Assembly (NCBI RefSeq): GCF_006345805.1
Contig: NC_043017.1
Coordinates: 18,724,001 to 18,788,000 of the forward strand
DNA: 64,000 nt
Source of the DNA: Octopus sinensis
Taxonomy: Eukaryota
Direction: 5' to 3'
Shown here one piece after another: positions 3 through 58,453 of the stretch. Each line of letters opens with the position of its first letter. Position 1 is the first letter of the stretch. The notes below the pieces were generated by a model that was not told where the DNA came from, ran no database searches, and saw nothing but the letters and a program-made list of their open reading frames with translations. Both the position numbers and the translations under genes were made by a program.

Positions 3-308
<306 letters not shown>

Positions 309-4521: not shown

Positions 4522-5556
4522 ATGGAAGATGAACTATGTGAGACCAAGGCTATATGTGAAAAACAATCAAATAATATTAATTTACCTGATGGTAAAATGA
4601 AAGAGAAAGAAAACCCATTACACCACTGTGACATCTGTAAAAGATCATTCACAACTAAAAGTAACTTAACTACTCATAACCTTATTCATACAGGAGAGAG
4701 AAAATATAACTGTAATATATGCAAAAAATCTTTCTTTCGAAAAGGGAATTTAGGTGTTCATAAACGTATTCATACAGGAGAAGAACCATATCGCTGTGAC
4801 ATTTGTGGTAAATCATTCTCTGTAAATAGTAGCCTAACAACTCACAAACGTATTCATACAGGAGAAGAGCCATATCAGTGTGAAATTTGTAAGAAGTCTT
4901 TCTCCCAAACAGGTACATTGACTGCTCACAGACGTATTCACACTGGAGAAAAACCATATCACTGTGATATCTGTGGTAAATCATTCTCTATTAATAGTCA
5001 TTTAACTTCTCACAAACGTATTCATACAGGAGAGAAACCATATCACTGTGATATCTGTGGTAAGCTATTTTCTGGAAATAGTTCTTTAAATCTGCACAGG
5101 CGCATTCATACAGGAGAAATGCCATATCGGTGTGATATCTGTGGGAAATCATTCTCTGGGAGTAGTGATTTAACTAGACACAAACGTATTCATACAGGAG
5201 AAGAACCATATCGTTGTGATGTATGTGGTAAATCATTCTCTTTAAGTGGTAACTTAAGTAAACACAAAGTTATTCATTCAGGAGAGAAGTTATATCATTG
5301 TGATATCTGTGGTAAATCATTCTCTCTAAGTTGTACCTTAACTAAACATAAAGTTACACATACAGGAGAAAAACCACACCACTGTGATATCTGTGGTAAG
5401 TCATTCTCTGCAAAAAGTTCCTTAAACATACATAAACGTATTCATACAGGAGACAAACGATACCAGTGTGATGTCTGTAACAAGTTGTTCACTCAAAAAT
5501 GTAACTTAACTACTCACAAACGGATTCATTACAAGAGAGAATCTACATCCCTGTGA
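4522..5556 (+). CDS. C2H2 zinc-finger protein ZNF-2, 11 tandem fingers
   Basis: 344-aa ORF: MEDELCE leader followed by 11 C-x2-C-x12-H-x3-H repeats with TGEKPY-type linkers. Confidence 0.96.
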   Translation: MEDELCETKAICEKQSNNINLPDGKMKEKENPLHHCDICKRSFTTKSNLTTHNLIHTGERKYNCNICKKSFFRKGNLGVHKRIHTGEEPYRCDICGKSFSVNSSLTTHKRIHTGEEPYQCEICKKSFSQTGTLTAHRRIHTGEKPYHCDICGKSFSINSHLTSHKRIHTGEKPYHCDICGKLFSGNSSLNLHRRIHTGEMPYRCDICGKSFSGSSDLTRHKRIHTGEEPYRCDVCGKSFSLSGNLSKHKVIHSGEKLYHCDICGKSFSLSCTLTKHKVTHTGEKPHHCDICGKSFSAKSSLNIHKRIHTGDKRYQCDVCNKLFTQKCNLTTHKRIHYKRESTSL

Positions 5557-6679
5557 AATCTGATAAATCGTTCTCTCAGACTTCTCTGTTCATGAGACAC
5601 AAACATATTCTTGCAGTAGGGAACTGTGATGTCTATTATATTTCAGTCTCTGAAAAAAAGTTGCTTAACTAAATATGTATTTATTCAAACAGAACACTAA
5701 CTGTATCGATTTTAAAATTCACCTTGTAAATACAATTATACGTGTACAATTAAAATTGTATTCCAATTAATTAGTTCTTTGTTGTTATAATTGTAATGTC
5801 CAACTCATGCCAGCATGGAAAAACGGACGTTAAACGATGATAATGAAATATCGATTGTTTACTTTGTTATAATTTAGTGATTTTTGTCAATATTGGAAAA
5901 TATCAATATTGAAAGTGGGATGCACAGCAGCTGGTGTGTGTCGTCAGACAGCAGCAGAAGCATGCAGAAGTCAGCCGCCGCTCCGTTGGTGGGCACAAAT
6001 GCTCACACACCAATCCACAGAGCGAACACCAAGTGATGGTGGTGGTGGCCATAGAAGAAGAAAGAGCGGACGATGTGTTAGCAGCGGGCATGAGGAGACA
6101 GAGTACTTTTACGGGTGGTACTCTTTTCTTCCCCATCTTCCTTTCAACGTTGCTCTGCTCTGTTATATGTCCCCGCTGTGCTTCGAGCACGTGGTGGTGA
6201 TCATCGAAAGTCGAATGCAAAGCAGCACAAAGATGACAGTCTGGTATGGTGGGAGTCAGAGAATTGAGCGATGCACTCGTCGGGCAGGAAGTGGGCCATT
6301 TCAAAAAGCTTGCTGGGCAATAAGATCACAATGACAGCACAAAAAGCTAAAAAACAATTGCATTAATAACATCACTCAGAGTTCTGTATGGCGTTTTCTT
6401 TTATTTGAAATCTTGCTTTCATTTTGATGCACAGACCTAATTCATCAGACAGAAATTCAGGAAAAATCCTTTTTTTTAAATTTTGTTTTCAATTCGTCTT
6501 ATGATTTATTTGTACTGGCGGAAAAATCATTCACATTTTTATAGAAAAGATTTATTGATGAGGTCCTATAAGTTAAATAGTTCCATCCAGTCTGTTCCGA
6601 ATAAATTTGGCTTTTAAGGTTTTTCCATGAAATGTAAGGTCATTTAATAATTTTCCCTTAAAATGTTTATTTCCTGTTG

Positions 6680-7127
6680 ATGACTGGCATCCGTGCTAGT
6701 GGAGTGTTAAGAGCATGATCATTGCCAGAATGGCTAACTGGCTTCCGTGCTGGTGGCATATAAAAAGCACCATTCAAGCGTGATCGTTACCAGCGTTGCC
6801 TTACTGGCACTTGTGCTGGTGGCACGTGAAAAAACATTCAAATGAGGTCGTTGCCAGTGCCGCTGAACTGGCTCCTGTGCAGGTGGCACGTAAAAAAGAC
6901 CATTTGAGCGTGGCCATTGCCAGTACCGCCTGACTGCCTTTCGTGCTGTTGGCACGTAAAAGCACCCACTACACTCTCAAAGTGGTTGGCGTTAGGAAGG
7001 GCATCCAGCTGTAGAAACTCTGCCAGATCAAGACTGGAGCTTGGTGCAGCCATCTGGTTCGCCAGTCCTCAGTCAAATCATCCAACCCATGCTAGCATGG
7101 AAAGCGGACGTTAAACAATGATGATGA
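6680..7127 (+). mobile_element. Retroposon with (GAT)n tail, family B (other copies near 905-1060, 1348-1530, 15427-15634, 20830-21075, 27165-27300, 35403-35600, 42478-42890, 52690-53000, 53303-53475, 55112-55335, 63115-63300)
   Basis: Recurrent GTTAGGAAGGGCATCCAGCTGTAGAAAC...CCAACCCATGCTAGCATGGAAAGCGGACGTTAAAC(GAT)n in both orientations, variably 5'-truncated. Confidence 0.85.
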
Positions 7128-10258: not shown

Positions 10259-11782
10259 TTATTGTTGTGTATGAGCAGCTACATGTTTGGTTAAGGAACC
10301 TTTCTGTGAGAATGATTTACCACAAATACTGCATTGATGTGGCTTCTCTCCTGTATGAATAAATTTATGTTTAGTTAAAGTATCATTTCTTGAGAATGAT
10401 TTACCACATATATCACAGGAATATGGCTTTTCCCCAGTATGAACGCGTTTATGAGTGGTTAACTGACTACTTACAGTGAACGCTCTGCCACACACAACAC
10501 AACAATATGGCTTCTCTCCTGTATGAATACGTTTGTGTTTAGAGAAGGCACTATTTCCAGAGAATGATTTACCACAAATATCACAGGTATATGGCTTCTC
10601 TCCTGTATGAATGCGTTTGTGAGTGGTTAGTTGGCTACTAACAGAAAATGATTTACCACAGATATCACAGTGATATGGTTTCTCTCCAGTATGAATACGC
10701 TTATGAGAAATTAATTCACCACTCTGACAAAATGATTTACCACACACATCACAGTGATATGGCTTCTCTCCTGTATGAGTACGTTTATGAGTTGTTAAAT
10801 CGCCAATTCCAGAAAATAATTTACTACAGATATCACAATGATATGGCTTCTCTCCTGTATGAATACGTTTATGCTTAGTCAGGTCACCGTTCTGAGAGAA
10901 TGATTTATTACAGATATCACAGTGATATGGCTTCTCTCCCGTATGAATACGTTTATGTTTAGTTAAGTCTCCTTGTTGAGAGAATGATTTACCACAGACA
11001 TCACAGTGATAAGGTTTCTCTCCTGTATGAACACGTTTGTGATTGGTTAATTGACAATTTACAGAGAATGATTTACCACAGATATCACAACGATATGGCT
11101 TCTCTCCAGTATGGATACGTTTGTGAATGGTTATATCACCACTCCCAGAGAACGACTTTCCACAGATATCACAGTGATATGGCTTCTCACCTGTATGAAT
11201 ACGTTTATGTTTAGTTAAAGCGCCACTTCTAGAGAATGATTTACCACAGATATCACAGTGATATGGCTTCTCACCTGTATGAACAGATCTATGTTTAGTT
11301 AAATAACTAAGTACAGAAAATGATTTGCCACAGATATTACAGTAATGCGATTTCTTTCCTGTGTGAATGAGTTTGTGAGTAGATAATTGACTACTTCCAG
11401 AGAATGATTTACCACAGGCATCACAGTGATATGGCTTCTCTCCTGTATGAATACGCATGTGTAAATTTAAGGCACTCTTTTCAGAGAATGATTTGCCACA
11501 GATATCACAGTGATATGGTTTCTCTCCAGTATGAATACGTTTATGAGAAATTAAATAACTACTTCTATAAAATGATTTACCACAAATGTCACAGCGATAT
11601 GGTACTTCTCCCGTATGAAGACGTTGGTGAGTTGTTAAGTTACCTTTTTGAGCAAATGTCTTCTTACAGATGTCACACTTGTACAATGCTTTCCCTCTCT
11701 CTTTCTTTTTATTATTAGGGAAACCAATCCTGTTAGATTGTTTTTCACAATTATCCTTGTTCTCATGTATTTCACCTTCCAT
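10259..11782 (-). CDS. C2H2 zinc-finger protein ZNF-3, 17 tandem fingers
   Basis: 507-aa ORF: family leader plus 17 fingers. Confidence 0.96.
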
Positions 11783-16694: not shown

Positions 16695-18320
16695 AGACAT
16701 CAAAATCCTGAATTCTGAAAAGCCCAACGATTGCTATTTCAAACTGCCATCAGGCATTTATTTCTCTCCCAGTGTAACATTAATTTAAACACTTCCACTC
16801 CTCATAATTTCAATTCCAACATTTACCATTTGGTCATCACATTTACATTTTCATGACTTTCTTCTCCAAAACCTTGACTTGACCAGTTTGTAGCTTCTAT
16901 ACAGAGTAATACTCTCTCACTTTCTCTTTTTTTCTAATTAGAGTAGCCATGTATCTCCTCCCCATCAGAATCCCTGTTTCTATCATACTTTAACCTCTTG
17001 TCCATTCTACTTCCATCTCACTTGAAGCACTTTGTCTTGCAAGTTGCTTGATGACCTCACCAGTGATGGTGCCATGTAAAAAGCACCCAGTTCACTATGT
17101 AAAATGATTGGCATTAGGAAGGATATCCAGGTGTGGAAACCATGCCAAAGCAGAGAGCAGAGCTTGGCACAATCCTCTGGTTCATCAGCTCCTGTCAAAC
17201 TGTCCAACCCATGGTAGTCTAGCCATGGGTTTCTTTTACAACTGTACATAGTGTGTAGTTGCCACAACTAAACATTAACACTGTTACATTTGTATAGAAT
17301 AACGAAAGAGCCTTTCATAAACTTCACAAGTAATTTGATGCAATTCAGAACAGGTAGGTGACAATTTATTCTCCATTATAAAATACAATGATTGCGATAC
17401 ATGAAATAAAATAACATAACAGGTTACAACAAAGATGTGTGAGAGAACTTCGTGGTTAGACTGGACTGATCTGGTGGACAAAGTCAATGTAGTGTTTGGT
17501 GGTGTGTAGAGGCAACTGTGGTTTTCATACAGCAACAATGTAAGCAGGCGTCTGGTGGAGTGAAAGCAGAGACTGGCTGGTGTCAGATACACTGTTGCTG
17601 GAGATGAGTTGCGTGTGGTCAGTGGTACATGCCAATGGCATAGAGCAGTTGAAAACTGTCTTTTTTATAGAGATCAGTAGTCTCCCAGAGTTGGTGATTA
17701 ATTTCCTGCATAAGGAAAAATAAACTGTTGTGCCAACATGTTTGAATGGCTGGAAACCGACCAATACAAATAACAGGTTCATTTAATCATGAGGTCATGT
17801 GAATTATTTTGGAAGTTATGATAAACTTTTCTTAATGTCCCAAAGGGGGATTGTGCAAAAAAAAGATTTCTCCTTCTCTATTCAATTGCAATAATAAACA
17901 TTTAAGTTTTTTGAAACTATAGTATCAAATGCAAATGTGTATGAAATATCAATGAATGATAAAGATGGGAAATGCAAAAAAAAAACACTTTTCAAAACAG
18001 TCAATATTTTTGTAGTTCAAAAATTGTGATTTATGGCATAAAATATCCTCTCGAATTAGCCAAAGCTAATAATGACGAACTATTAAATATTGTTAAACAC
18101 ACCTCTGCAAATGCAATGTACGTAAGTAATTCACTTTAAATACAACGAACAACTAGTGGTGAGACTCTTTTTAGCAGATCCCCAAATGGGGCTCATGGCA
18201 GGCAATGGGTTAAGTAACTTTTTTCAGAGACTGATTTACAATTGACATCACAGTTCCCTACTGCAAGAATATGTTTGTGTGTCACGAACAGAAAAGTCTT
18301 AAAGAATAATTTATCAGATT

Positions 18321-19520
18321 TCACAGGGATGTAGATTCTCTCTTGTAATGAATCCGTTTGTGAGTAGTTAAGTTACATTTTTGAGTGAACGACTTGTTAC
18401 AGACATCACACTGGTATCGTTTGTCTCCTGTATGAATACGCTTATGTATATTTAAGGAACTTTTTTCAGAGAATGACTTACCACAGATATCACAGTGGTG
18501 TGGTTTCTCTCCTGTATGTGTAACTTTATGTTTGGTTAAGCTACCACTTAGAGAGAATGATTTACCACAGACTTCACAACTATATGGCTTCTCTCCAGTA
18601 TGAATACGCTTGTGTGTAACTAATTGGCTATTTCCAGAGAATGACTTCCCACAGATATCACAGTGATAGGGCATTTCTCCTGTATGAATACGCTGGTGTA
18701 TATTTAAGGTGCCCTTTCCAGAGAATGATTTACCACAAACATCACAGTGATACGGTTTCTCTCCAGTATGAATACGTTTATGAGAAATTAAGTAACTATT
18801 TCTACAGAATGATTTACCACAGATATCACAGAGATATGGCTCTTCTCCTGAATGGATAAGTTTGTGTGTATCCAAGTTACCTTTTTGAGAGAAAGACTTT
18901 TTACAAATATCACACTGATATGGCATTTCTCCTGTATGAATACGTTTGTGAGTAGTTAAGCTACTACTTACAGAGAAGGTTTTACCACAGATATCACAAT
19001 GATATGGTTCTTCTCCTGTATGAATACGTCGATGAGTAGTTAAGCTACCACTAACAGAGAACGATTTACCACAGATATCACAATGATATGGTTCTTCTCC
19101 AGTATGAATGCGAATGTGAGTAGCTAAGCTACCTTTTTGAGAGAAAGATTTTTTGCATATATTGCAGTTATATGCTTTCTCTCCAGCATGAATACGTCTG
19201 TGAGTTGTTAAGTTACTATTTACAGTGAATGATTTACCACAAATATCACAGTGATATGGCTTCTCTCCTGTATGAATTCGCTTGTGTAAGTTTAAGCCAC
19301 CCTTTTCAGAAAATGACTTACCACAGATATCACAATGATATGGTTTCTCACCTGTATGGATGCGTCTGTGAACAGTTAAGTTACATTTTTGAGAAAATGA
19401 CTTGTTACAGATATCACAGTAATATATTTTTTCTTTCTCTTGTTTTTCCTCAGCAGGTAAATCAAGTCTCTTAGACTGTGGTTCACATTCAAACTTTTTC
19501 TCACATAGTTCATCTTCCAT
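18321..19520 (-). CDS. C2H2 zinc-finger protein ZNF-4, 13 tandem fingers
   Basis: 399-aa ORF. Same C-terminus ([13 protein letters not shown]) as ZNF-2. Confidence 0.96.
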
Positions 19521-21247
19521 AATTTTACATCATTCACCACAAAATACAAATGGTTTTTTTAGTTTTATTTCACTTTTGGATTTGGTTTGCAAGATTCTTC
19601 ATGTGATTTCTTGTGTTGAAGCATATTCTGTTATGTGTGGGGAGAAGTCTTTCTCTTTTACTGCCTTGTAATTTAACACACTCACCAGTAAAATTTCCAC
19701 TTATTTCTTTTTTACTTTTCTAAAATTTTTGTTGCGTCTTGCAATCATTTCAATAATTTTAAAATTTTGCTGTTATATTTTATTCCTCACAAATGTTTCT
19801 TCTGTTATGTTTCTGTCAATTGTGATCTCTGTCAATATTTGAATATGCTGCAAACTTCTTTGCAATCCAAAGTTTAATTAAAACTTGAAATCATCCTGTA
19901 CATATTTCAGAGAACGAAGTAAGGAAATTTTGAAAACTTGTCTCTGTTCAGATCAAATATTTCACAGCAATTCCTGCATAGATTTATACAAACAAGTTTA
20001 TATCTCTTGTGTATAAGACTTTCCTTTCGTCTTTAAAACTTTCTACTATGCCAATGTCATCTGATATTCTGAAATAAAAAGAGAACAAGACATAAAATAT
20101 ACAGGATATTTAAATGAAAAGTAGACATCCAACAGTGGACATTTTATGACATTTCTCACATATATACATATCTATATTCTAATGTGGTGGTGCATTGTGC
20201 TTGTGAGTAAAACTCGTCCTTACACCTTGCCCCAGGCCACTCAGCTGTAAATGGGTAGTTCTGTGACAGACAGGTGTTCCATGTTGGGCCAATGCTGTCC
20301 AGCCCACATGGAGGCATCATTCACAAACTACTACAATGCAAGGAAGTGCACTGTAACCAGCGATGCCTGACAACGTCCAATCGTCTGGTTAATACAGTGA
20401 AATATCCTAATAGAGTAGATGAATGTGACTGCCTTTCCATAACTTCCTCTTTCATGTCAGATACTTTATTTCTTGTGATGGATGTAATTTGGCTGAAGAC
20501 TTTATTTTAGTTTTCATTAATCAATGGCAGCCTGCAGACCAAGTATGGCTAGAAGATGTTGTGGAGCACAATTATACACACACACATGTATATACCTGTA
20601 TTCACATGACAAATGACCGAGACCTTCGGCAATACGCTGAAATCATAGTTGTGGAGATACTGGTGTCCCGCATTGGACTCTTTTTTTATATATAATGTAA
20701 GATTAATTAGATAAAATCATATTTACAGCTGATATACCCTTGTATGTGTTGTGGAGCATAATTATACACACACATGTATATACCTGTATTCGCATGACAA
20801 ATGACCGAGACCTTCAGCAATATGCCCTGCTCGAGTAGAAGACCCAACAAGCCAAGTGAAATCATAGTCGTGACAGATACTGGAGTCACGCAACCGGTAC
20901 ATGTGCTGGTGGCACATAAACGCACCCATTACACTCTCGGAGCGGTTACCATTAGGAAGAGTATCCAGCCGTATAAACTATGTCAAATGAGACTGGAGTT
21001 TGATGCAGCCCTGGTCAAATCGTCCAACTCATGCCAGGTTGGACAGCGGACTTCAAATGATGACGATAATGATATATCATCATCATTTAACGTCCGTATT
21101 CCATGCTGGCATGGGCTGGATGATTTGACAGGATCTGATGCCATGTACACAAATACGATAAGCTCAAGAGGTGCAAGCGCCGGTCCTTAGTCCCTTCTTG
21201 TTTATGATTGTTTTTATGTGCCATAAGAGAGGGGTTTAAGACAGGCT

Positions 21248-21358: not shown

Positions 21359-21399
21359 CATTATTGAAATTAAAACATTTCAGAAAAACAGGAAGAGAT

Positions 21400-32835: not shown

Positions 32836-32970
32836 TGTCGGACATATCGAATACTAACCCACATGCTTATATACTACTAATACAGCCTACACCTATTATC
32901 TATATGCATGCGTGTGTGTGTGTTTGGTAGAACTCAATACATGAATATATTTGTATATAGACGTTTACAC

Positions 32971-38584: not shown

Positions 38585-39769
38585 ATGGAAAATGAGTTCA
38601 GTGAAAACAATATTGAATGTGAAACAGAGTCGAAGAGGATTGATTTTCCTAATGATAAAAAGAAAAAGAAAGATAAAATACATCAGTGTGATATCTGTAA
38701 AAAGTCATTCTCTGGAAAAAGTAGCCTAACTGCCCATAAACGCATTCATACAGGAGAAAAGCCATACCATTGTGATGTCTGTGGTAAATCATTCTCTGTG
38801 AATAGTGCCTTAACTTCTCACAAACGTATCCATACAGATGAGAAGCCATATCATTGTGATATCTGTGGGAAATCATTCTCTCAAATAAGTAACTTAACTA
38901 CTCACAAACGTGTTCACACAGGAGAGAAGCCATATCAGTGTGAGATATGTGGTAAATCATTCTCTGTAAGTAGTGCTGTAAATTCTCACAAACGTGTTCA
39001 TACAGGAGAGAAACCAAATCACTGTGATATCTGTGGTAAATCATTTTCTGTAAGTAGCCACTTGACTATACACAAACACATTCATACAGGGGAGAAGCCA
39101 TACCAATGTGATTTATGTGGTAAATCATTCTCTGTAAGTAGTGCTGTAAACAAACACAAACGTATTCACACAAGGGAAAAGCCATATCACTGTAATATCT
39201 GTGGTAAATCATTCATTCAGTTGAGTCACTTAACAACACACAAACTTATTCATACAGGAGAGAAGCCATATCATTGTGATATTTGTGGCAAATCATTCTC
39301 TGGAAGTAGTGAATTAACTATGCATAAACGTATTCACACAGGACAGAAGCCATATCACTGTAGTATCTGTGGTAAATCATTCTCTCAAAATAGTCATTTA
39401 ACTAAACACATACGTGTTCATACTGGAGAGAAACTATATCACTGTGATATTTGCAGTAAATCATTCTCTCAAAAAGGCAATCTGATTATTCACAAGCACG
39501 TCCATGAAGGTGAAAAACCATATCACTGTGATATCTGCGGCAAATCATTCTCTGGAAGCAGTTACTTAACTTCTCATAAACGCATCCATACAGGTGAGAA
39601 ACCTTACCATTGTAATATCTGTGGGAAATCATTTTCTCATAGTGGTAACATAACCATTCACAAACGTATTCATACAGGAGAAAAGCCATATCACTGTAAT
39701 ATCTGTGGTAAATCATTTTCTCAAAGAAGTAATTTGGCTACACATGTAGGTATTCATATACAACAATGA
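38585..39769 (+). CDS. C2H2 zinc-finger protein ZNF-6, 13 tandem fingers
   Basis: ATG at 38585 (MENEFSE) aligns with paralogs; 13 fingers. Confidence 0.95.
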
Positions 39770-41099
39770 CTATTAATGTTGAAGTCACTGTTATATTACA
39801 GTGCAACCTCTGTATTAAGTTTTGTTGATCAAATTAGTTTTGCCTTCCTCTTAATATTGTGTACGTGTGTAAATGCATATACACTTACTGCTTCATTTAC
39901 TCTTTATTCTCTCTCCCAACTATTTATATGACACTTGATTACGATGCATAAATGTTTCATCCAAATGTAAATTTTGTATTTTATTCTGACCGAAGAATTT
40001 CCAATAGGAAATTGCTTCCACATGTGCACTTTTGCGATTCCTATTAGGAAATGAAACTTGTATAATGGTGAATAAATAATACCAAAGAATTTTTCAAACT
40101 TCTTCTTTTTGATATGTAATTACTCTGCAATGTAATTACTTGCTGAATTTTCCAACTCTAATATGTACTTCACATAAATATAACAACTACTCGCTGGATT
40201 GCAATGCTGAAATAGGCAGATCTGCTTCAAGAGGACACAGCTGGGATTTTAACCATCTACATAATGTACTTTGAGGATATATCCCGATGCATCTCCATCA
40301 CCAACTCTCTCTCTGTCTTTCTCTTTCTTTTCCAACTGGTGTAGCAATGTATCTCTACAGCAAAATATCTATCCTTCAATACTACTCCCTCTCCCAGTCA
40401 AGGGGTCTTTGTCCTACGAGATATTTGTTGACCCTGCTGGTGCAGGTGCCTCGTAAAAAACACTCAGTACAATTTGTAAAGTGGAAGGCATCAGCCATAG
40501 TAACTATACCAAAGCAGACAATAGAGTTTTGTGCAGTTCTCTGGTTTGCCACTTCCTATCAGATACTATCACTCCAGCATCATGGAAAACAAACATTAAA
40601 TAATGATGATGACATTTATATCTATCTATATGAGCAAAACGCCCCCTGTCCAATGGACGGTGCTGAGTTGTCAAACATTTAAACCAAATTTTCTCAAAAC
40701 AACTTGTCCGACCGTCCCATAGTCTTTCCTTTTGAGAAACACTGATTTAACCTAAATTTGAGACACCAGCAAAAGAAGAAATAAAGATAGACTTTTTTTC
40801 TATTCCAAAGAAAAACGATTTTATTCACACAAATATGCAACCAAAGAGTTTAAAGTACCAGTAATGATAAGGCTGTTGACTGGGAGAACACAAACATGGT
40901 TTAAACACTTCTTTTCATTAAAAAATAATTAAGCATGCCTTTATTTCAATAAAATTTTTAGTTTTGTTAAACGAATTTAAGACAAAAAAAAACTTGAGAA
41001 ACCAAAGTCTTTCCTTCCTTCATGCCAAGTTTGAAGAAAATATCTCTTTTGCACTTACTTTTTTGGTCTCTTAAATATACTGCATTTTGTGGCATTATT

Positions 41100-41381
41100 T
41101 CAAACCAGCCGGCTTTTTTGCGCAAACTGCACATGCATTTTTCTCGCGTACACGTAGTATCAATCGCAACAGTTGATGTACTTGTGAGTACAAATGCATG
41201 TTCCCACAGCTTTATTGATTGCATTCTCACCTGGAATCGATTTTTGTAATTTTTTCAAGACTTATACATGCCCTGATACCGTCGGTATCTACATATCAAA
41301 TTTGAGCGCAATCAGAAGGAGGATGCCCAAGATCCTAGAGCACACACACACAGACAGACAGAACGGATTTTATATAATAGA
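41100..41381 (-). mobile_element. Helitron-like 5' fragment
   Basis: Minus strand begins ATCTATTATATAAAATCCGTTCTGTCTGTCTGTGTG, resembling the 5' end of the 23787 Helitron. Confidence 0.5.
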
Positions 41382-42122
41382 TATGGTAATGACCATGAGA
41401 TTGCACCTAGAAAGTTCCCCTCTGAGGCACAAGTCCAGGCAATATAATTTTCTCTGATGTTGTGGAGACAGAAATGTTTACATTTCACTTGAACTACTTT
41501 TGAAACATTGAAACAGTTACCAAAATCTTTTGGAATATATTGAGATCACTGACATGGAACTTCTCCATGAAAACGTTTAACAACATGGGCACAGGTATGG
41601 CTGTGTTGTTGAGAAGCCTGCATTGCAACCACATGGCTTTAGGTTCAGTCTCACTGTGCAACAACTTGAGCAGGAGTCTTCTACTATAACCTTAGGCTAA
41701 CTAATGCCTTCTGAGTGAATTCTGCCAGATAGAAACTGTACGGAACCCAATTGTGTGTGTGTATGACTAATAGGCATGTGGCTGAGTGGTTATGATGTTG
41801 CACTCGTGATTGCTAAACCGTGGGTTCAATTCTTGCACTGAGCAACACGTGTTCTTGTGCAAAACACATCAATTTCACGTTGCTCCAGTCCACTCAGCTG
41901 TACATGGGTCCCCCTGTGACTGACTAGCCTTCTGATTAGGGGCAATGTTGGCCTGTTCGCCTAGTCAGTGGTGTGGCATCACGACCAGCGATGTGTATCA
42001 ACATGATAGCCTGGTCGATCTCATGATTAAGGTCAAGAAAATTACTGTAATATAGCATAAAGTGGTGTTTAAACATAAACGAACTTAAGCTTGGTTAAAA
42101 TATGTTTGTGACATATCTCAAC

Positions 42123-42271
42123 TGCTAAAGGCAAATCCACTGCAGTTACCATGGAGAAAAAAATTCTCTTTTATGGTAGGTGTAAAATGCCAGATATGGT
42201 GTTTTTATACCTTTTTACCATAACAGAAAATTTTTTTCTCCACAGTAACTGCAGTGGATCTGCCTTTAGCA
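42123..42271. repeat. 149-bp fold-back palindrome (MITE-like)
   Basis: TGCTAAAGGCAAATCCACTGCAGTTAC versus GTAACTGCAGTGGATCTGCCTTTAGCA; pairing continues to the centre. Confidence 0.85.
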
Positions 42272-42889
42272 CTAGCATAGCTAGAGTGTGTGCCACTTGG
42301 GGTGGACCTACCATCTGCCACTCCTGGACTCCACAAGAAAACACATATTGCCTACAGCTGCCTGGGGTAGACAGCTCCTACCGTGTCCCACTAGCTACAC
42401 TAGTGGCCTTTAGCAAGTGTAATAGGTCACAAACATATTTTAACTAACCTAAAGTTTGCAGACACACACACACACATCATCATCATCATCATCGTTTAAC
42501 GTCCGTTCTCCATGCTAGCATGGGTTGGACGGTTCGACCGGGGATCTGGGAAGCCAGAAGGCTGCACCAGGCTCCGGTCTTATCTGGCAATGTTTCTACA
42601 GCTGGATGCCCTTCCTAACGCCAACCACTCCGTGAGTGTAGTGGGTGCTTTTTACGTGCCACCTGCACTGGTGCCAAGCGAGGCTGGCATCGGCCACGGT
42701 CGGATTGGTGCATTTTACGTGCCACCTGCATGGAAGCCAGTCGAGGCGGCGCTGGCATCGGCCATGATTCGGATAGTGCTTTTTACGTATCTCCAGTCCA
42801 GGGGTCCTGGCATCTGCCGGGTGCCAGTCATAGGATTGGTTCAATTTCGATTCCGATTTCACTTGCCCCAACAGGTCTTCGCAAAAGTA

Positions 42890-43430
42890 TTTAGCTAAGA
42901 ACAAGCCATTGTACTTGTCATTTGTTGATCTAGAGAGAGCTTTCAAATGTACCTCACTGTGATACAGTGGCCTTTGTGGAAGTTAGAGATAGATGAATGG
43001 CTTGTGAAAGCAGTACAGGCCTTGTACAGAGATGCTGTTAGTAAGGTAAGAGTTAGCAATGGGTACAGTGATGAAGTCAGTGTACAGGTGTTTACCAAGG
43101 CTCGGTCCTCAGGCCCCTCCTATTCATCATTTACCAGAAGGGTGAAAGGTTATTCAATTTCTTGCTTACTTGGGTCTTGGTCTTTATTTCCACATCAGGA
43201 ATTTCTTTTCTAATTCTGTAACAGATTCTTCCAGGAGGGCAAGATCACCAGCAGATAGTAGTTCCCATGGGCTTCCAGTTTTAAATTCCTCTGATATGGC
43301 CTGGAGGATGATGATGGTGAATAGGAGGGGGCTGATATCTGAGCCTTGGTGAGTACCTACTTGTACAATGAATTCATCATTGTACTCATAGCCAACCTTT
43401 ACCTTACCAACAGCACCCCTGTACATAGCA
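42890..43430. mobile_element. Two RTE reverse-transcriptase fragments in inverted orientation
   Basis: Plus strand: FVDLERAF, EWLVKAVQALYRDAVSKVRV. Minus strand: VGTHQGSDISPLLFTI, WELLSAGDLAL. Confidence 0.8.
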
Positions 43431-43974
43431 ATTATATCAAGTTTAAGGTTACATTAATACTTGCAAATTAACATTCAGTTTAGCCATCAAGTCATGAAGG
43501 AATCATACAAGAAATAAAAGAAATGATAAAACAGTAGAAATCAAAACCAACATCAGAATTGGTCTCTCGGTAGGATACATCCATAATAACATTTAAACCA
43601 GAATATATGCAAGATACATGAAACAATGTATAGAAGATGCAGAATACATACAAGATATCATATGTACATAATGATATAAATGAAATATTTTCTTTTATGG
43701 TTTCTGTATTTATTTCTTACCTAATAACTGTACAGGGATGTTATAACAGGGCTTGTGAGAATAGATTCCTCAGTTATTTACCCACAATGCCAAATAAAAT
43801 CAATTGTATCTTTTTTCCTATCAGAAGGAATATTTTGAAAGAATAATTTTCTTATACACATCACAGCTGTAAGTTATCAGTGTGTTGATATACTTTTGGT
43901 TATATAAAATAGTGCCTGCAGATTGTTATCTCACTGTGGTATCTTCTTTCATCTGTCAGCATCACCATTTAATG

Positions 43975-44115
43975 TCTGGAGTAGGAGTCTTCTGGAGTAC
44001 AGCAAGGTACCAGGCATCTCAATCCTTTTGTCATCTCACCTGAAAGGTTCAGTGACCTGAGGTCATTCTTCAGTACTTCATCCCATATCTTCCTGGGTCT
44101 CCCACTTTCACGTTT
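43975..44115 (-). mobile_element. RTE LINE extreme 3' fragment
   Basis: RESGRPRKIWDEVLKNDLRSLNL matches the RTE C-terminal RGRPRKTW motif. Confidence 0.65.
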
Positions 44116-44558
44116 CAATACATTTATTATCATATAAGATATTTTTACATTCAATGAATTCTGACTGTTATGATATAGTACAACATACAGTTAACTTTTG
44201 TAGATCAAATTAATCTTTTCCCATTTCGTTAATTATACTCAAACATTTAAATAATACTATAGAGCATGAATATTCGTTATTTCATAATTAGATTTGCAAA
44301 CAAGAAAAAAATGAATTTAATCAAAAAAAAAAAACCCAGTAAACTATGAAGTTTACCATTAAGGAGAATTATCATTGTTAAAATTTATAAATATCGATAT
44401 TTTCCTATATAGAGGAGACTTGGTGTTGATAAAATTAGCAACTTACCCTATGGGAAAGTATTAACATTCATTATATGACTAATTATATGAAAAAAGAAAA
44501 GGGAAAAATTCATTTAATCAATAAAAACTAAATCAAATGAATTTAAATTTTGGTTCAG

Positions 44559-45830
44559 TTATTGGTCTTTATGTTTATTTATATGCGAAGTTAAATTGGT
44601 TTCTTGAGAGAATGAATTGCCACAGACATCACAGTGATATGGCTTCTCATCTGTATGGATACGTACGTGCTTAGTTAATTCGCTATTTTGAGAAAATGAT
44701 TTATGACAGATATCACAAGAAAACAGTTGCTCTGCTGTATGAGTATGTTTGTGTCTAGTTACATTACCACTTTTAAAAAATGATTTACCACACACATCAC
44801 AGTGATACGGCTTCTCTCCTGTATGAACGTGCTTGTGCATATTTAAGTCGCTATTTCTTGTAAATGATTTACCACAAATGTTACAGCAATATGGTTTCTC
44901 TCCTGTATGACTGTACCTGTGTGTAATTAAGTGAGTACTTACAGAGAATGATTTACCACAGATATCACAGAAATATGGTTTCTCTCCTGTATGAATGCGT
45001 TTGTGTGTTGTTAAGTTACTACTTGCACAGAATGATTTGCCACAGACATCACAGTGATATGGTTTTTCTCCTGTGTGGATACGTATGTGTTTAGTTAAGA
45101 CACCACTCCCAGAGAATGATTTACCACAGATATCACAGTGGAATGGTTTATCTCCTGTATGAATACGTTTGTGTACAGTTAATTCGCTACTTCCATAGAA
45201 TGATTTATCACAAATACCACACTGATATGGCTTCTCTCCTGTATGAATACGTTTGTGCTTTGTTAAGGGACTTATCTGAGAGAATGATTTACCACAGATA
45301 TGACAGCGATATGGTTTCTCTCCTGTATGAATACGCTTGTGAGAAGTTAATATACCTGTCTCAGAGAACGATTTCCCACAAATATCACACTGATACGGCT
45401 TCTCTCCTGTGTGAATGCGTCTATGAGAAGTTAATTCACAATTCTGAGAAAATGATTTGCCGCAGATATCACAATGATATGGTTTTTCTCCTGTATGAAT
45501 ACGTGTGTGATTAGTTAAGTTACAATTCGTAGAGAATGATTTACCACAGATCTTACAACGATATGGTTTCTCCCCTGTATGTATGCGTTTGTGTAAAATT
45601 AAGGTATTCTTTTGAGCAAAGGATTCACCACAGATATCACAGGGAAATGGTTTTTCTCCAGTATGAGTACGTTTGTGAATACAAAGGTTACCTTTTTGAG
45701 AGAATGACTTGTTACAGATGTCACAGTAATATAAAGGTTTTCCATTCTCTTCCATTTTCTCGTTAAGAAAATCAATCTTTTCAACCTGAGTTCCACATTT
45801 AACTTTATTCTCACATAACTCATCTTCCAT
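44559..45830 (-). CDS. C2H2 zinc-finger protein ZNF-7, 14 tandem fingers
   Basis: Family start MEDELCE at 45830; an in-frame upstream ATG at 45941 lies inside a LINE insertion. 14 fingers. Confidence 0.95.
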
Positions 45831-45870
45831 AATTGTTTGTCTCCCACCATAAAACTTCAAAAGATTTTGA

Positions 45871-46127
45871 TTTGAAGCATGGAACAAACTGCCGGCATCA
45901 GTTGTTAGTTGTCGGAGCACTGCATCCTTCAAAACTTCCATGCTTTCTGAGATTCGCCAACACTACACCTGATTTTCTCCCCTCCATACACACACAAGCA
46001 TGTATCTGACTCATACATTGTTCGCTTTCCAGACATTTGTACATTACTGTATATACTTTATCCACACTGTCTGACAAGTTGTGGTGCACCTGAGCACTGT
46101 ATACAATAATTTCATTATTATTATTAT
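45871..46127 (+). mobile_element. 5'-truncated CR1/L2-type LINE, antisense in ZNF-7 5' UTR
   Basis: FEAWNKLPASVVSCRSTASFKTSM...* (WNxLP..VV...SFK motif), a 3' UTR and an (ATT)n tail. Confidence 0.85.
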
Positions 46128-46625
46128 ATATTATATTTCATTCCTAACAAATATTTCTTCTGCTACATTTCCTTCCATCGTCTTTGTTGAGATTTGAATG
46201 TACACAAACTCCATTTTTGTCCAAATTTATTTAGAAGGCAAAATCATCTTGTATGGCTATTTTGCAAATAATCTCAGCTCGGAGTCAATATTTCACAGTA
46301 ATTCTACCACAGATTTATATAACGAATGGTTACATTTGTTGTGTATGACATCTTCCATTTGTCTTGAAAGGATGATAAATATTGATGGATCTCAGGTAAA
46401 TAATATTCTTTAATGCCAATATCATTTGATATTCTGAAAGAAAAGAGAACAAAATATAAAATGCAGAGGATACTTAAACCAAAGACATTCAACACTGGAC
46501 ATCTTATTACATTTCTTCTAATATTGATAAACTGTAGTTATAAACTTCTTCCTGGACATTGGAACCCATCTAATACATGCATCCATTTTCAAGACTAAAA
46601 GCTTTATATACATACTCCATACACA

Positions 46626-46657
<32 letters not shown>

Positions 46658-47083
46658 GGGGAGAAAGAGAGAGTGTGCCTCTTACACATAGATGACAATA
46701 CACATGTTCACTCACTTACACGCACTCTCTCTCAAACACACACACATGCACACAAAAAGGATGTATGCATATGTAATGATGTATGTATGTATACATGACA
46801 ACACACCCCTTCACTCACTCACTCTCTTTCACACACACATCCATTTCATATACACGTACCTATTTCTTTATTACCCACAAGGGGCTAAACATAGAGGGGA
46901 CAAACAAAGACAGACATAGGTATTAAATTGATTACATCAACCCCAGTGCGTAACTGGTACTTAATTTATCGACCCCGAAAGGATGAAAGGCAAAGTCGAC
47001 CTCGGCGGAATTTGAACTCACAACGTAACGGCAGACGAAATACGGCTACGCATTTCGCCCGGCGTGCTAATGTTTCTGCCAAA

Positions 47084-47400
47084 GGCAACATCGTTACTTT
47101 AGGAAGATTTCTTTTTTTCTTCACTTTCTTTCCATAATCTTTGAACACATCAAAACAAACAGATGTAGAAGAAAGAGGACACGACCTATTCAATGTAGAC
47201 GTTATTTCTGTTAATAATACTTACATATTAATATAGAGCCGATGACGAAGATGTGATAGATTCAAGTAGTCGCAACTCAGACTGGACAATGACAGCTTTG
47301 ACACAACTTCTATATTTTACAACAAACCTTCATTCAAATTTTTCACATCGACATAATAAAGAATGTTGTAGCTATTTCTTTCCTCGGTTAATTAGCAATC
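47084..47400 (-). promoter_or_regulatory. Upstream module of ZNF-7 (donor at 47224; acceptor 46435-46434)
   Basis: Reverse-complement match to the family module. Confidence 0.7.
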
Positions 47401-49204
47401 ATCTATCAACCGACGTCTTCGATGTATAATTAAGACACACCAAAGTGAGGGAGGTGCATTTTTCAGTGATGTTAAAAAAAATGCACTTCCCACATATTGG
47501 TTTATCTTTATTATTTGAATTTGATAAAATTATTGTTTTTGTTGTTGTTATTGTTATTATTATTATTGTTATTGTTATTATTATTATTATTATTATTAAA
47601 ATTGGGGAAAACAAATTCTTTTACAACACTTATGGTTTGTGAGAAGAGACACTTTAGGTGTTTGGAGGTTTTGAAAAAGGAAACCCTTTGGAAAATGTTT
47701 CCTAGTGTAAATGGTTAATTACAAAAGAGGTAGCGTGGCACCTTGGGCAAGTGTCTTCTACTATGGCCTCGGGCCAACCAAAGCCTTGTGAGTAGATTTG
47801 GTAGATGGAAACTGAAAGAAGCCCATGTATATATACATATGTGTGTGTTTGTGTGTTTGTCTCCCCAAAGTCGCTTGACAACTGATGTTGGTTTGTTTAC
47901 ATCCCCACAACTTAGCGGTTCAGCAAAAGAGAGAGAATAAGTACTAGGCTTACAAAGATTAAGTCCTGGGGTCGATTTGCTCGACTAAATGCGGTGCTCC
48001 AGCATGGCTACATTCAAATGACTGGAAAAGGTGAAGGAATAGGGTATTCCTTTCATTACTGACACATAACAGCATAAAACTAACATTTTGTTTTTCTTTA
48101 ACATTTTTACAACATAAAACAAACGATATTTTTTATTTTATTCCAGTCATTAGAGCATGGCCATGCTGGGGCACTGCTTTGAAAGGTTTTATAGAACAAA
48201 TTGACCCCTATATAGATATTCTTTAAATACCTATTCTATTCGACTCCATACGCCGAACTGCTAATGGGGACATGAACAGACCAGCACTAGTTGTCAAGTG
48301 GTGGGGATGAACAAATACAAAGACACATACACTTATGTATTTATATGATGGGCTTCCACACAGTTTCCATCAACCAAATTCACTCTTAAGGCATTGGTCA
48401 ACCTGGGACTACATTAAAAATAACTCAACCTAGGTGCCTTACCAGGGGATTGAACCTAATACCCATGGTTACAATGCAAGCTTCTTAACCACACTACCAT
48501 ACCTGTACCTACATGCAAACATTTGAATATTTAATCTCCCTTTCCTCCATCACACATGATAGTTTTTTTCTCAGTCTCCTAACCAACAAACATGTAGCTG
48601 CCATTACTGTCTCACTTCCATTACTTCTTACTGTTTCCCCTATCATACTCTCTCTTTGATCACTCTATCACACTATTTCTCCCACTATTTTTCTCCGCCA
48701 TCATTTTCTCTCATTATATCTCCCATCATACTCTCTCCTCCATCACTCCCTCTTACTGTTTCTCTCATCATACTCTCTCTAATTCTCCTATCATACTCTC
48801 TCCTCCCTTGCTCAGTTTCTCCCATCATACTTTTTTTTTTGACACATTGCCTTGAATTGAATGGAAATGGCACAGAAAAGCAAGGAGTTTTTAATCTTGG
48901 TAGGAAAGAAGGTAATCTCATTGTTGCTGGTGTTAAGGAAGGAACTTAACCATAGAAATCACACCAGCACTTGGAGCATTCGAACAAGATGTGCTCTCCA
49001 CCCATAGAGGAGTGGAATAATTCTGAACAAAAAATATCTTGGATTGTGACAACCTATCCAGCACAAGCCAACATGGAAACCAGATGTAAAGTGATTGTGC
49101 TATTTGGTGTAATGATGGTTTCTTTTTTAACTTTGTTTATTTCATTCTAACATAATAACCACAGTGATTTATGAGAATACATATTTCTGACATGATAACT
49201 CTCA

Positions 49205-49505
49205 TGCGGCTCAGTGGTTAGAGCGTCAGGCTCACAATCATGAGGTAACGAGTTCAATTACCAAACAGGGACATGTTGTGTTCTTGAGCAAGACACTCTA
49301 TTTCATGTTGCTCCAGTTCACTCAGCTGTAGAAATGAGTTGCAACATCACTGGTGCCAAGTTGTATCGGCCCCTTTGCCTCTCCCTTGGATAACATTGGT
49401 GGCATGGAGAAGGGAGGCTGGTATACATGAGCAACTGCTGGACTTGTGCCTCGGAGGGGAACTTTCTAGGTGCAATCTCATGAAGATTCATGACCAAAGG
49501 GTGTC
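49205..49505 (+). mobile_element. tRNA-derived SINE, family D (relatives near 26865-27070 and 41770-42030)
   Basis: GCGGCTCAGTGGTTAGAGCG box A, GAGTTCAAT box B, TTGCTCCAGTTCACTCAGCTGTA core. Confidence 0.7.
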
Positions 49506-49921
49506 TTTACTCTATAACTCTAACATAATTTATGAAAATACATTTCTCAATTATTTACCCACAATGTCAAATGCATTGTATATTTTCTTCTTTCTGGAAA
49601 TAAGTGAGACAGAACATATGTATTTTTTTTAATACTTTTATTAAAAATATGACAGTAGTAAGTTACCTCGCCAAAACAGAGATGTAGTTATACAAAAACA
49701 TAGTGTTGCCAAGTTGTTATCTTCTTTCCAGAGTGTAGATATTTATGTTTATGTCAGATACTTGTTTTAAATTTAATTTTAATAGTTGTGGCAAATAGAG
49801 CAATATCAACTAATAAATTTCGCTTTGGATGTGGCTTGCAAGATTATTTATGTGAATTCGTGTGTTGAAGCATCAAATGAAGTAGACCAAAAGTTGCTCT
49901 GACTTTGCTATATTCATATTA

Positions 49922-51676
49922 TCATTGAATACATACATGTTTAGTTAAGTGAGACTTTTGAATGAATGATTTGCCACAGATATCACAATGATATGGCCTC
50001 TCTCCAGTATGAATACGTTTGTGTTTAGTTACAGCACCAATTCCATCAGAGAATGATTTGCCACAGATATCACACTGATATGGCTTTTCTCCTGTATGAA
50101 TACGTTTGTGAGAAATTAATCCAGCACTTCCAGAAAAAGATTTACCACAAATATCACAGCAATATGGCTTCTCTCCTGTATGAGTATATGTGTGAGTTTT
50201 TAAGTGGTTACTTCGAGAGAATGATTTACCACAAATATCACAGTGATACGGCTTCACTCCAGTATGAATGTATTTGTGTGCAGCTAAACTATTTCCATGA
50301 GTGAATGATTCATCACAGATATCACAGTGATAAGGTTTCTCTCCTGTATGAATACGTATATGTTTAGTTAAGTCACCACTTCCACAGAATGATTTACCAC
50401 AGATGTCACAGTGATATGGCCTCTCTCCTGTATGAATACGATTATGTGATTTCAAAGATGTCCTTAGTGAGAATGATTTATTACAGATATCACACTGGAA
50501 TGATTTTTTACCTGTATGAATATATTTGTGAAGAGTTAATTCACAATTTTGAGAGAATGATTTACCACAAATATCACAGTGATATGGCTTCTCTCCTGTA
50601 TGAATACGTTTGTGTGGAGTCAAGTAACTACTTCCAGAGAAAGATTTATCACAGACATCACAATGATAAGGCCTCTCTCCTGTGTGAATATATTTGTGAG
50701 TAGTTAAGTGACTTGATTGAGAGAATGATTTGCCACAGATGTCACAGTGATATGGCCTCTCTCCTGTATGAATACGTTTGTGTTTAGTTACAGCACCAAT
50801 TCCATTAGAGAATGACTTACCACAGATATCACACTGATATGGCTTCTCTCCTGTATGAATACGTACGTGAGAAGTTAATCCAGCACTTCTTGAAAAAGAT
50901 TTACCACAAATATCACAGAGATATGGCTTTTCTCCAGTATGAATGTATTTGTGAGTTTTCAAGTGGCTACTTTGAGAGAATGATTTACCACAAATATCAC
51001 AGTGATATGGCTTCTCTCCGGTATGAATGTATTTGTGTGCAATTAAACTATTCCCATGAGAGAATGATTCACCACAAATATCACACTGATATGGTTTCTC
51101 TCCTGTATGAATTCGTTTATGTTTAGTTAAGTTACCACTTCCAAAGAATGAACTACCACAAATTTCACAGTGATATGGTTTCTTCCCTGTATGAATACGA
51201 TTATGAAATGTTAAATGACTCCTTAGAGAAAATGATTTATCACAGACATCACATTGGAATGGCTTTGCACCAGTATGAACATATTTGTGAGAAGTTAATT
51301 CAGAATTTTGAGAGAATGTCTTTCCACAGATATCACAGTGATACGGCTTCTCACCTGTATGAATGCGTTTGTGAGAAGTTAATCCTCCATTTTGATAGAA
51401 TGATTTACCACAGACTTCACAGTGGTATGGCTTCTCTCCTGTATGAATGAGTTTGTGTCTTGTTAAGTTACTACGACTAGAAAATGATTTAGCACAAATA
51501 TCACAATGGTATGTTTTCTCTCCTTTATGAATACATTTGTGAGAGAATGACTTTTTACAGACATCACAGTAGAATAATGCTTTCCTTTCCTCTTTGCTTA
51601 CATCATTAGGAAAGTCAATCTTATGAATCCGTGTTTCACATTTATCCTTGTTTTCACAGTTCCATTCAGTTTCCAT
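49922..51676 (-). CDS. C2H2 zinc-finger protein ZNF-8, 18 complete fingers plus degenerate first and last fingers
   Basis: ATG at 51676 (METEWNCE). First finger lacks 7 aa, last finger lacks the second His, and there is an internal block duplication. Confidence 0.95.
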
Positions 51677-57300: not shown

Positions 57301-57385
57301 ACAGAAAGATAGCACCACTGCTTCTACATTTGTGCTTTGATAGGGCACCAATTTCAGAGAATGATTCACTGCAGATATCACAGTG

Positions 57386-58453
57386 CTATTTCTTTTCTCT
57401 TGTATGAATATGTTTATGAGTAAATAAGGTACCACTTTCAGAGAATGACTTATCACAAATATCACAGTGATATGGTTTCTCTCCTGTATGTGTACGTTTG
57501 TGAGTAATCAAGGTACTATTTCCAGAGAATGATTTACCACAGATATCACAGTGATATGGTTTTTCCCCAGTATGAATACGTTTATGAGAAGTTAGGTTAC
57601 CATTTTTAGAGAATGATTTACCACAAATATCACATTGATATGGTTTCTCTCCAGTATGAATACGTACATGTTTAGTTAAGTCACCATTCTGAGAGAAAGA
57701 TTTACCACAAATATCACAGTGATATGGCTTCTCTCCTGTATGAATACGTTTATGATTACTTAGGTGACCATTTTCAGAGAATGATTTACCACAGATATCA
57801 CAGTAATATGGTTTTTCTCCAGTATGAAGCCGTTTGTGTATAGTTAGGGTTGTGCAACGTGAAAATGATTTACCACAGATATCACACTGATATGGCTTCT
57901 CTCCCATATGAATACGATTGTGAGTAGTTAAACTCTCATTTTGAGAGAATGATTTACCACAGATATCACAATGATATGGTTTTTCTCCTGTATGAATACG
58001 TCTGTGTGCAGTTAAGCTGCTACTTTGAGAGAATGCTTTACCACAGATATCACAATGAAATGGTTTTTCTCCTGTATGAATACGTCTGTGTGCAGTTAAA
58101 CTACCATTCTGAGAGAACAATTTACCACAGATATCACAGGAATATGCTTTCTCTCCTGTATGAACGACTTTGTGAGAAGCTAAAGTATCACTTCGAGAGA
58201 ATGATTTACCACAGATATCACAGTAAAACGGTTTCTCTCCTGTATGAATGAATTTGTGAGAAGTTAAAACATCATTTCTGTTAAATGATTTACCACAGAT
58301 ATCACAATGATATGGTCTCTCCCCTGAATGAATGCGTTTGTGAGTAGTTAGGTTGCTTTTCTGAGAGAATGACTTTTTACAAATATCACATTTATGCAAT
58401 GGCCTTCCATTCTCTTTCTTTTGAACTTTGTCCTCACAGAATTCAGTTTCCAT
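57386..58453 (-). CDS. C2H2 zinc-finger protein ZNF-9, 12 tandem fingers, shortened leader
   Basis: 355-aa ORF. The stop falls inside a linker (TREKK*HCDIC). Confidence 0.95.

Follow-up and report, generated by a model that had tools for sequence, protein, structure and literature searches.

A common N-terminal head in a large subfamily of Octopus poly-zinc-finger proteins

The expansion of C2H2 zinc-finger (ZNF) genes in octopuses is very large, and no effector domain is named for it in the literature that we searched. Here we report the analysis of a 64,000-nucleotide (nt) stretch of the 2.72-Gb Octopus sinensis assembly (C21:18724001-18788000, hereafter referred to as the window, whose own numbering is used below unless C21 or another sequence is named), which carries eight complete poly-C2H2 ZNF genes. 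As judged from sequence comparison, the 33-35 residues that precede the first finger in these proteins are the common N-terminal head (hereafter the head) of one large, Octopus-restricted poly-C2H2 subfamily. A shared head in which about a dozen residues are under selection provides a concrete experimental handle on this expansion.

ZNF genes of the window

Eight open reading frames (ORFs) of at least 150 amino acids are present in the window (ATG starts, standard genetic code), and each encodes a poly-C2H2 array of C-x2-C-x12-H-x3-H units joined by TGEKP-like linkers. The five window proteins that were scanned against Pfam match PF00096, with E values of 1e-61 to 5e-99, and PF13465, with E values of 3e-86 to 1e-163. 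On the forward strand, the heads of gene 1 (4522-4626, MEDELCETKAICEKQSNNINLPDGKMKEKENPLHH; ORF 4522-5556, 11 fingers), gene 4 (24657-24761; ORF 24657-26264, 18 fingers) and gene 5 (38585-38686; ORF 38585-39769, 13 fingers) score 55.7, 56.6 and 60.5 bits, respectively, against a hidden Markov model (HMM) of the head. On the reverse strand, the heads of gene 2 (11678-11782; ORF 10259-11782, 17 fingers), gene 3 (19419-19520; ORF 18321-19520, 13 fingers), gene 6 (45726-45830; ORF 44559-45941, 14 fingers) and gene 7 (51569-51676; ORF 49922-51676, 16 fingers) score 57.4, 55.2, 61.4 and 40.1 bits. Gene 5 provided both the query for the genome search and the sequence folded by AlphaFold2.

The eighth gene (ORF 57386-58453, reverse strand, 12 fingers) has a shortened head (58391-58453), to which the HMM aligns at positions 1-11 only. 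In a DNA alignment, a 42-nt in-frame gap removes 14 residues, including the C..T..IDFP block, and leaves the lysine/glycine tail in place. An earlier model-made description of the window (the first-pass annotation) had called this gene a natural deletion variant, and the deletion is real. The seven full heads have 34-36 residues and need hardly any gaps for alignment, gene 7 having a one-residue insertion (W-N). The first-pass annotation had also listed an ME start in all eight complete proteins, a second conserved glutamate, a cysteine near residue 12 and a set of hydrophobic motifs. All of these hold in the alignment: M1, E2 and E7, the last being the second glutamate, are invariant in the eight heads, C12 is invariant in the seven full heads, and the motifs INLP, IGFP, LDLP, INFT, IDFP, IDFL and IDFP recur letter for letter.

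Two genes have local irregularities. The ORF of gene 6 stays open to 45941 because about 270 nt are inserted in its 5′ leader; the family methionine is at 45830, and the 36 codons 5′ of it (MEVLKDAV...) are an accidental open stretch and thus a spurious extension. In gene 7, finger 1 is internally deleted (51505-51568, reverse strand), and the first intact finger begins 22 residues past the head.

Spread of the head within the genome

A genome search with the 34-residue head of gene 5 (E values up to 10) gave at least 141 matches, nearly all of which start at query residue 1; the count is a lower bound, as 150 of the 168 candidates were scored. The matched heads front open frames of 300-900 amino acids on C21, C27, C28, C30, C7, C9, C4, C10, C2 and C24. 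A strict DNA pattern, ATGGAR-NNN-GAR-N42-ATHGAYTTY, had 105 genome hits against 4 for the reversed control, a likeness that greatly exceeds chance, and revealed two young sets, one of about 40 copies on C27 and the other of about 22 on C28. The 70 loci that were fetched yielded 61 non-redundant head copies, which were reduced to 49 by the removal of near-duplicates, and residues were counted in the 58 copies having canonical fingers 1-2. M1 and E2 are present in all 58 copies, followed by Y or F at 34 (51), K31 (50), E4 (49), F21 (48), V or I at 10 (47), I19 (47), C12 (45), D20 (45), L5 (44), T14 (40) and P22 (34). Heads vary little in length, most of them having 34-35 residues, and head and fingers form a single uninterrupted ORF in all eight window genes and in the 61 non-redundant copies.

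These copies were found through the head itself. A head-blind sample comprised the 35 ORFs with at least four fingers in the window and the next 200 kb (264 kb together). Apart from window gene 8 and a gene at +262.8 kb, all of these (33 of 35) match the head HMM at independent E values of 1.6e-8 or less. The Pfam finger model gave 29,278 first-look candidate finger sites in the genome, and 29 of 30 loci picked by that model alone contain an ORF of at least three fingers. The head is carried by 3 of these 29, one of them decayed, and many of the others bear other, shorter heads; the head therefore marks one subfamily and not all octopus ZNFs. The first-pass idea of a constant effector is not supported for octopus ZNFs in general, in view of this figure of about 3 in 29 and of sister subfamilies that grew further with a changed or absent head (see below).

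Within the cluster, 120-171 kb past the window start (C21:18844042-18894726), lie four or five genes of 13-37 fingers whose heads repeat the opening 11-residue unit (ENELCETPIxIK) in tandem, two to three times, and keep a single TESE.IDFP block. In these genes, finger 1 is without its cysteines.

Start codon and the upstream block

An in-frame stop lies upstream of the head in all 49 copies, at a median distance of 18 codons and within 10 codons in 12 of them, and another in-frame ATG follows that stop in 7. A at −3 and G at +4 are found in 48 of the 49, and the head sits at residue 1-2 in 19 of 22 database proteins, RefSeq models included. By these signs in the sequence, ME is the real start. 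An in-frame CGERRKI before the methionine was considered as a coding extension or a spliced exon, and was rejected as a general rule on the upstream stops (49 of 49) and the few additional ATGs (7 of 49).

A conserved non-coding block occupies about 135 nt before the ATG, as at gene 5 (38450-38584, forward strand), with the consensus core GGAGTTTGCAGCATCTTCAGATAT ... TTGTGGTGAGAGAAGAAAAATT-ATG-G. Mean pairwise identity is 0.55-0.65 in the block, compared with 0.45-0.53 further upstream. Non-coding sequence common to paralogues on different chromosomes takes up about 210 nt before each ATG (for example, 38375-38584), and its strongest core, GGAGTTTGCAGCATCTTCAGATAT, is located about 125 nt before the ATG. 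The core GGAGTTTGCAG|CATCTTCAG could be a 3′ splice acceptor or a promoter element. The insertion in gene 6 (45831-46160, reverse strand) sits between this conserved block and the last 30 nt before the ATG.

Occurrence in other species

A 35-position profile of the head, compared with 1.84 billion representative proteins, returned 23 matches at E values up to 0.001. The 22 matches that were retrieved are all ZNF proteins; in addition to the 19 mentioned above, two carry the head 7-8 residues in, and one is a fused model. Among ten matches looked up, a species was named for nine, five from O. sinensis and four from O. bimaculoides. A second search, with the head plus eight finger residues, was swamped by generic ZNFs that match the linker-like tail of the query, and only rows with 100% query cover are informative; all ten such rows belong to O. 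sinensis or O. bimaculoides. Gene models of O. vulgaris have partial heads. No head was found in a squid, cuttlefish or other mollusc protein in the libraries searched, whose coverage of these groups is uncertain. The head thus appears restricted to Octopus in the public protein sets searched.

In the nearest cross-species pair, which is paired by likeness and not by established orthology, the head is identical at 32 of 35 positions, as compared with 65% of the 214 residues that align. Columns 6, 17 and 26, in which the two heads differ, are all outside the twelve best-kept columns described below. We found no description of an octopus ZNF head in the full-text literature, including the accessible part of PMC12513265, supplements being outside the search.

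Relation to known domains, predicted structure and composition

The first-pass annotation had proposed a KRAB-independent, family-wide N-terminal signature joined to fast-changing fingers, and the searches bear this out: the head profile retrieves ZNF heads only, and no Pfam family corresponds to it. When the 49 heads alone were compared with Pfam at E values up to 10, six unrelated families appeared, each in 1 of the 49 and with a best E value of 0.026. KRAB (PF01352) was found neither in the 49 heads nor among the 25 best families listed for each of five whole proteins. ZAD (PF07776) did not match any of the 49 heads, in which the well-kept cysteine is C12 (45 of 58 copies, with C6 in 26 of 58), and neither SCAN (PF02023) nor BTB-POZ (PF00651) matched these heads of just 33-35 residues. 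A profile search of PDB sequences at E values up to 10 gave 0 hits, and a search of the ESM Atlas yielded no usable match. The eight window proteins and the long form of gene 6 had no exact match in a 15-billion-sequence collection, and a word-indexed search with residues 1-40 of gene 5 gave no match.

An origin from a decayed zinc finger was examined with hhalign, in which a profile of the 49 heads aligned with 110 finger units at a probability of 0.1%, pairing only the last two head residues with the first two of the finger. The head is thus not a decayed finger, and Y34 is part of finger 1.

Given the 49 aligned paralogues, AlphaFold2 assigned predicted local distance difference test (pLDDT) scores below 50 and no secondary structure to residues 1-27, and scores of 87-91 to fingers 1-2; the head is predicted to be disordered. 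This prediction bears on the possibility that the head is an amphipathic strand pair through which the proteins dimerize, as do ZAD, SCAN and BTB. The alternating hydrophobic and polar residues of variants such as PIKIKTESESIDFP would suit such a pair, and other ZNF-associated N-terminal domains dimerize (compare the accessible part of PMC12649048). However, the model contains no strands, with low confidence over residues 1-27, only a single cysteine is well kept, and similarity to ZAD, SCAN or BTB is absent, making self-association highly improbable.

Glutamate and lysine account for 17% and 15.7% of head residues, and the mean net charge is −1.7 (range −9 to +7). The SUMO consensus psi-K-x-[DE] occurs in 20 of the 49 heads, the expectation from shuffling being 13.8 ± 3.0 (20 was reached in 13 of 500 shuffles), and in 16 of 29 cluster heads; we treat it as a weak lead. 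The head would then be a regulated site of modification or turnover, through SUMO at K11/K13 or an N-terminal degron. The lysines do concentrate at positions 11 and 13, and Met-Glu starts are typical substrates of N-terminal acetylation. Nevertheless, the motif is found in under half of the heads, with K11 in 27 of 58 and an acidic residue at 13 in 18 of 58, and the best-kept residues I19, D20 and F21 lie outside it; we regard this role as very unlikely. A likeness of IDFP to the CtBP, WDR5 and SUMO-interaction motifs would be poor or limited to few members, and these motifs were set aside.

Selection on the head

Pooled over 1653 pairs by the Nei-Gojobori method, the proportions of synonymous (pS) and nonsynonymous (pN) differences in the head are 0.46 and 0.30, and the ratio of nonsynonymous to synonymous rates (dN/dS, ω) is 0.55. 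By the same method, ω is 0.19 in fingers 1-2 outside the contact positions and 0.92 at the contact positions. A codon model (GY+F3X4, fixed tree, 49 copies; null ω = 1 with κ = 2.2, the head's own κ being 2.22) gave ω = 0.63 for the head, with twice the log-likelihood difference from ω = 1 (2ΔlnL) at 21.0. Residues 2-24 have ω = 0.51 (2ΔlnL = 34.1), and tail residues 25-35 have ω = 0.71 (2ΔlnL = 2.7), which is not distinct from 1. In this model, ω is 0.20 in the finger framework and 1.00 at the finger contacts. The first-pass annotation had described the DNA-contacting helix residues as variable, and positions −1, 2, 3 and 6 of fingers 1-2 are indeed the freely changing ones, at ω of 0.92-1.00 by the two methods, with the rest of the fingers at 0.19-0.20.

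Because the 49-copy sample had been found by likeness to a head, the test was rerun on the head-blind cluster genes. In the 29 of 35 genes that were used, six truncated or decayed heads being omitted, ω is 0.65 (2ΔlnL = 9.8). For cross-validation, the 12 best-kept columns were chosen in 37 copies outside the cluster (E2, N3, E4, L5, C12, T14, I19, D20, F21, P22, K31 and Y34) and then measured in the 29 cluster genes, in which their ω is 0.25 (2ΔlnL = 32.5), and that of the remaining 22 columns is 0.90 (2ΔlnL = 1.2). All of these values come from paralogues with synonymous sites near saturation (dS 0.7-1.0) and with gene conversion in the cluster. About 12 positions of the head are under purifying selection, and the residues between them drift neutrally. 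The leader that the first-pass annotation had described as conserved is thus held by selection on its amino acids in part, and the rest of it is approximately neutral.

A similar pattern of likeness could arise if the conserved element were the nucleic acid, with the 5′ untranslated region (UTR) and first codons acting as a translational or transcriptional control element and the peptide as a by-product. Copies agree better in the block from −135 to −1 than in the DNA further upstream, pS is 0.46 in the head and slightly higher, at 0.54, in fingers 1-2, and genes 1 and 3 share 1.1 kb 5′ of the ATG and the first ~20 nt of coding sequence at 95-100% identity, unlike the rest of the head. Nucleotide constraint, however, would depress dS and dN alike, yet the kept columns have an ω of 0.25 and contain synonymous changes, the latter according to per-site parsimony counts that have low power, come from two partly overlapping samples and serve as a qualitative check only. 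The peptide rather than the RNA appears to be selected, because ω is far below 1 at codons 19-22, which lie 55-66 nt from the ATG, and a control element has, in our view, a very low probability.

The tail value is relevant to the K/E-rich tract before finger 1, in which the first-pass annotation had seen a possible nuclear localization signal (NLS). Some heads contain KKKERGK, KKREKAKR or KKKKKDK, but just 11 of the 49 tails have K[KR]x[KR], the net charge of the tail varies between −6 and +5, and the tail of the ~22-copy C28 subfamily is acidic (EDETEEEEK). With a tail ω of 0.71 that does not differ from 1, an NLS was rejected as a family feature, and of the roles considered here it is the least probable.

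Sister subfamilies that changed or lost the head

Searched as a DNA pattern, IDFP with CDxC 12-15 codons downstream of it had 67 genome hits, compared with 1 for the control. By match length, 27 of these IDFP...CDIC hits are in frame, 39 are frameshifted or interrupted by a stop, and 1 is likely due to chance. Sister subfamilies on C30 (9.7-10.7 Mb), C27 (11.6-13.2 Mb), C18 (16.8-17.2 Mb) and unplaced contigs account for the out-of-frame set; in these subfamilies, a 28-nt deletion and a change of frame turn the head into MEKSEKSVELISPEPMTKEMSSYD, or no ATG is present. The sister subfamilies keep the IDFP DNA remnant ATTGATTTCCCC in another frame, and their heads read MEKSEKSVELISPE... where an ATG exists. 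Another ZNF subfamily, at C27:12.5-13.0 Mb, has an 18-residue head, MNNSTKAKISDKREKPYQ, and its frame opens only 24 codons before finger 1.

A docking tag and its main rival

We give a probability of roughly 40% to the reading that the head is a short-linear-motif tag that docks a common partner protein. This reading is suggested by a predicted disordered tail with two short constrained patches and neutral spacers, and the tandem repeats of the first 11-residue unit beside one TESE.IDFP block, in four or five cluster genes, likewise have the character of short motifs. The constrained residues (M-E-N-E-L; C12, T14 and I-D-F-P at 19-22; and K31 and Y34 by finger 1) would be the places at which another macromolecule makes contact, the most plausible candidate being a cofactor of chromatin or transcription. 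The disordered head would thereby dock a shared partner onto proteins whose DNA-reading fingers diverge freely, and would represent an effector-type tag analogous to FiNZ or to a minimal KRAB. A bolder form of this proposal, drawn by analogy and in our estimate distinctly unlikely, is that the acidic-flanked IDFP recruits one shared silencing cofactor to hundreds of fast-diversifying, transposon-directed arrays, as an octopus counterpart of KRAB and FiNZ. If so, genome-defence ZNF systems would have arisen once more, in molluscs, with a linear motif replacing a folded domain.

The main rival to docking is a legacy head without an effector role, in which an ancestral N-terminus was carried along by duplication and its constraint reflects start context, Met-Glu processing, the avoidance of harmful residues and the capping of finger 1. 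We consider this possibility somewhat doubtful, and much of the evidence that supports it also weighs against docking. Constraint on the head is weak on average (ω of 0.63-0.65), with about two-thirds of the columns neutral (22 of 34 at ω = 0.90). For the seven window heads by themselves ω is only 0.71, and the selection case therefore rests on the wider family, for which the genome-wide sample was gathered by head likeness, the 29-gene set leaves out six degenerate heads, and gene conversion is a further complication. Identity between copies is 0.55-0.65 in the adjoining 135 nt of non-coding DNA versus 0.62-0.83 in the head; with the flanking DNA so close to the head in this respect, shared descent accounts for much of the resemblance seen among heads. 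E2, N3, E4 and L5 could be held by start-codon context, in line with the A at −3 and the G at +4 that 48 of the 49 copies share, or by N-terminal processing, and not by a partner, and Y34 aligns with the finger's own first residue.

The variation among relatives points in the same direction. Window gene 8 is without the central block, and in 39 of the 66 family-like pattern hits the IDFP remnant is out of frame with finger 1 or separated from it by a stop. Sister subfamilies with the MEKSEKSVELISPE... head or without an ATG have dozens of copies with long open arrays, so that the peptide is dispensable for the persistence and amplification of these genes. The gene family does not require the head, since sister clades that reframed or dropped it continued to expand, and heads of only 5-18 residues occur in other subfamilies.

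Three observations, however, argue against a legacy head. C12, T14 and I19-P22 are encoded 34-66 nt from the beginning of the ORF, and selection on them is at the amino-acid level (ω = 0.25 for the 12 columns), the length of 34-35 residues is nearly fixed in most copies, and the head is the best-kept part of the nearest cross-species pair. Docking of a partner by the head is the reading that we prefer. Binding of a cofactor by the head would reveal the mode of action of cephalopod ZNFs and would provide an independent origin of the combination of a constant tag with variable fingers. If the head binds none, the family would exemplify finger-only ZNFs that expand without an effector, which would be informative too.

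Comparison with known ZNF systems

The KRAB domain folds over about 75 residues and binds TRIM28. The KRAB-ZNF proteins of tetrapods (PF01352) resemble the octopus family in having a constant N-terminal part and a variable array, contact residues at ω of about 1, tandem gene clusters and some descendants that lose the N-terminal part, whereas the octopus head, predicted to be disordered, does not reach half the length of KRAB. ZAD is a zinc-binding dimerization fold of about 75-90 residues with four cysteines. The ZAD-ZNF proteins of insects (PF07776) likewise carry a lineage-specific N-terminal module on many clustered poly-ZNF genes, whereas the octopus head has one kept cysteine, no Pfam match and no predicted structure. 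Poly-ZNF genes without an effector, including the sister subfamilies, have the same arrays and clusters and homologous 5′ DNA, and differ in having heads of 5-24 residues in which the MENEL...IDFP peptide is not kept.

FiNZ of cyprinid fish is a Glu-rich sequence of 28 amino acids with an exon to itself, 5′ of the one that encodes the fingers (Wells et al. 2023, PMC10547256). Knock-down of FiNZ-ZNF genes derepresses retroelements, the activity of FiNZ itself being unproven (PMC10547256). Of these systems, FiNZ is closest in kind to the octopus head: both are short (28 versus 33-35 residues), Glu-rich (17% in the octopus head) and without similarity to known domains, and both front large, lineage-restricted and tandemly clustered poly-ZNF families with fast-changing fingers. 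The two differ in that FiNZ has a separate exon, whereas the octopus head lies in the same open frame as the fingers, and in that FiNZ is called highly conserved (PMC10547256), whereas the octopus head keeps only about 12 positions. They also belong to different phyla, and the likeness is one of kind only. As was done for FiNZ, one antisense reagent directed at the start site could reach many of the head-bearing genes.

Neighbouring features

Genes 1 (3420-5630, forward strand) and 3 (18250-20620, reverse strand) are mosaics. In addition to their near-identical 5′ portion (95-100% over 1.1 kb and the opening ~20 nt of the ORF), they agree at 93-97% over the last ~300 nt of the ORF, and the coding interior from about codon 8 is just 71-82% identical, with a difference in length of two fingers. 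This arrangement resembles the outcome of gene conversion or recombination, the breakpoint being immediately within the head. The left edge of the window cuts a ninth ZNF array, the 3′ end of which is included (1-300, forward strand) with finger motifs at 48-110, 132-194 and 216-278.

At gene 5, the interval 36169-38711 is covered without a break by contigs of four public runs, which we guess to be RNA (contigs were compared with 30001-50000). The contigs cross the head and the candidate acceptor, and no splice or transcript start is visible in them. If the runs are indeed RNA, 2.4 kb of upstream sequence would be transcribed together with the start of gene 5.

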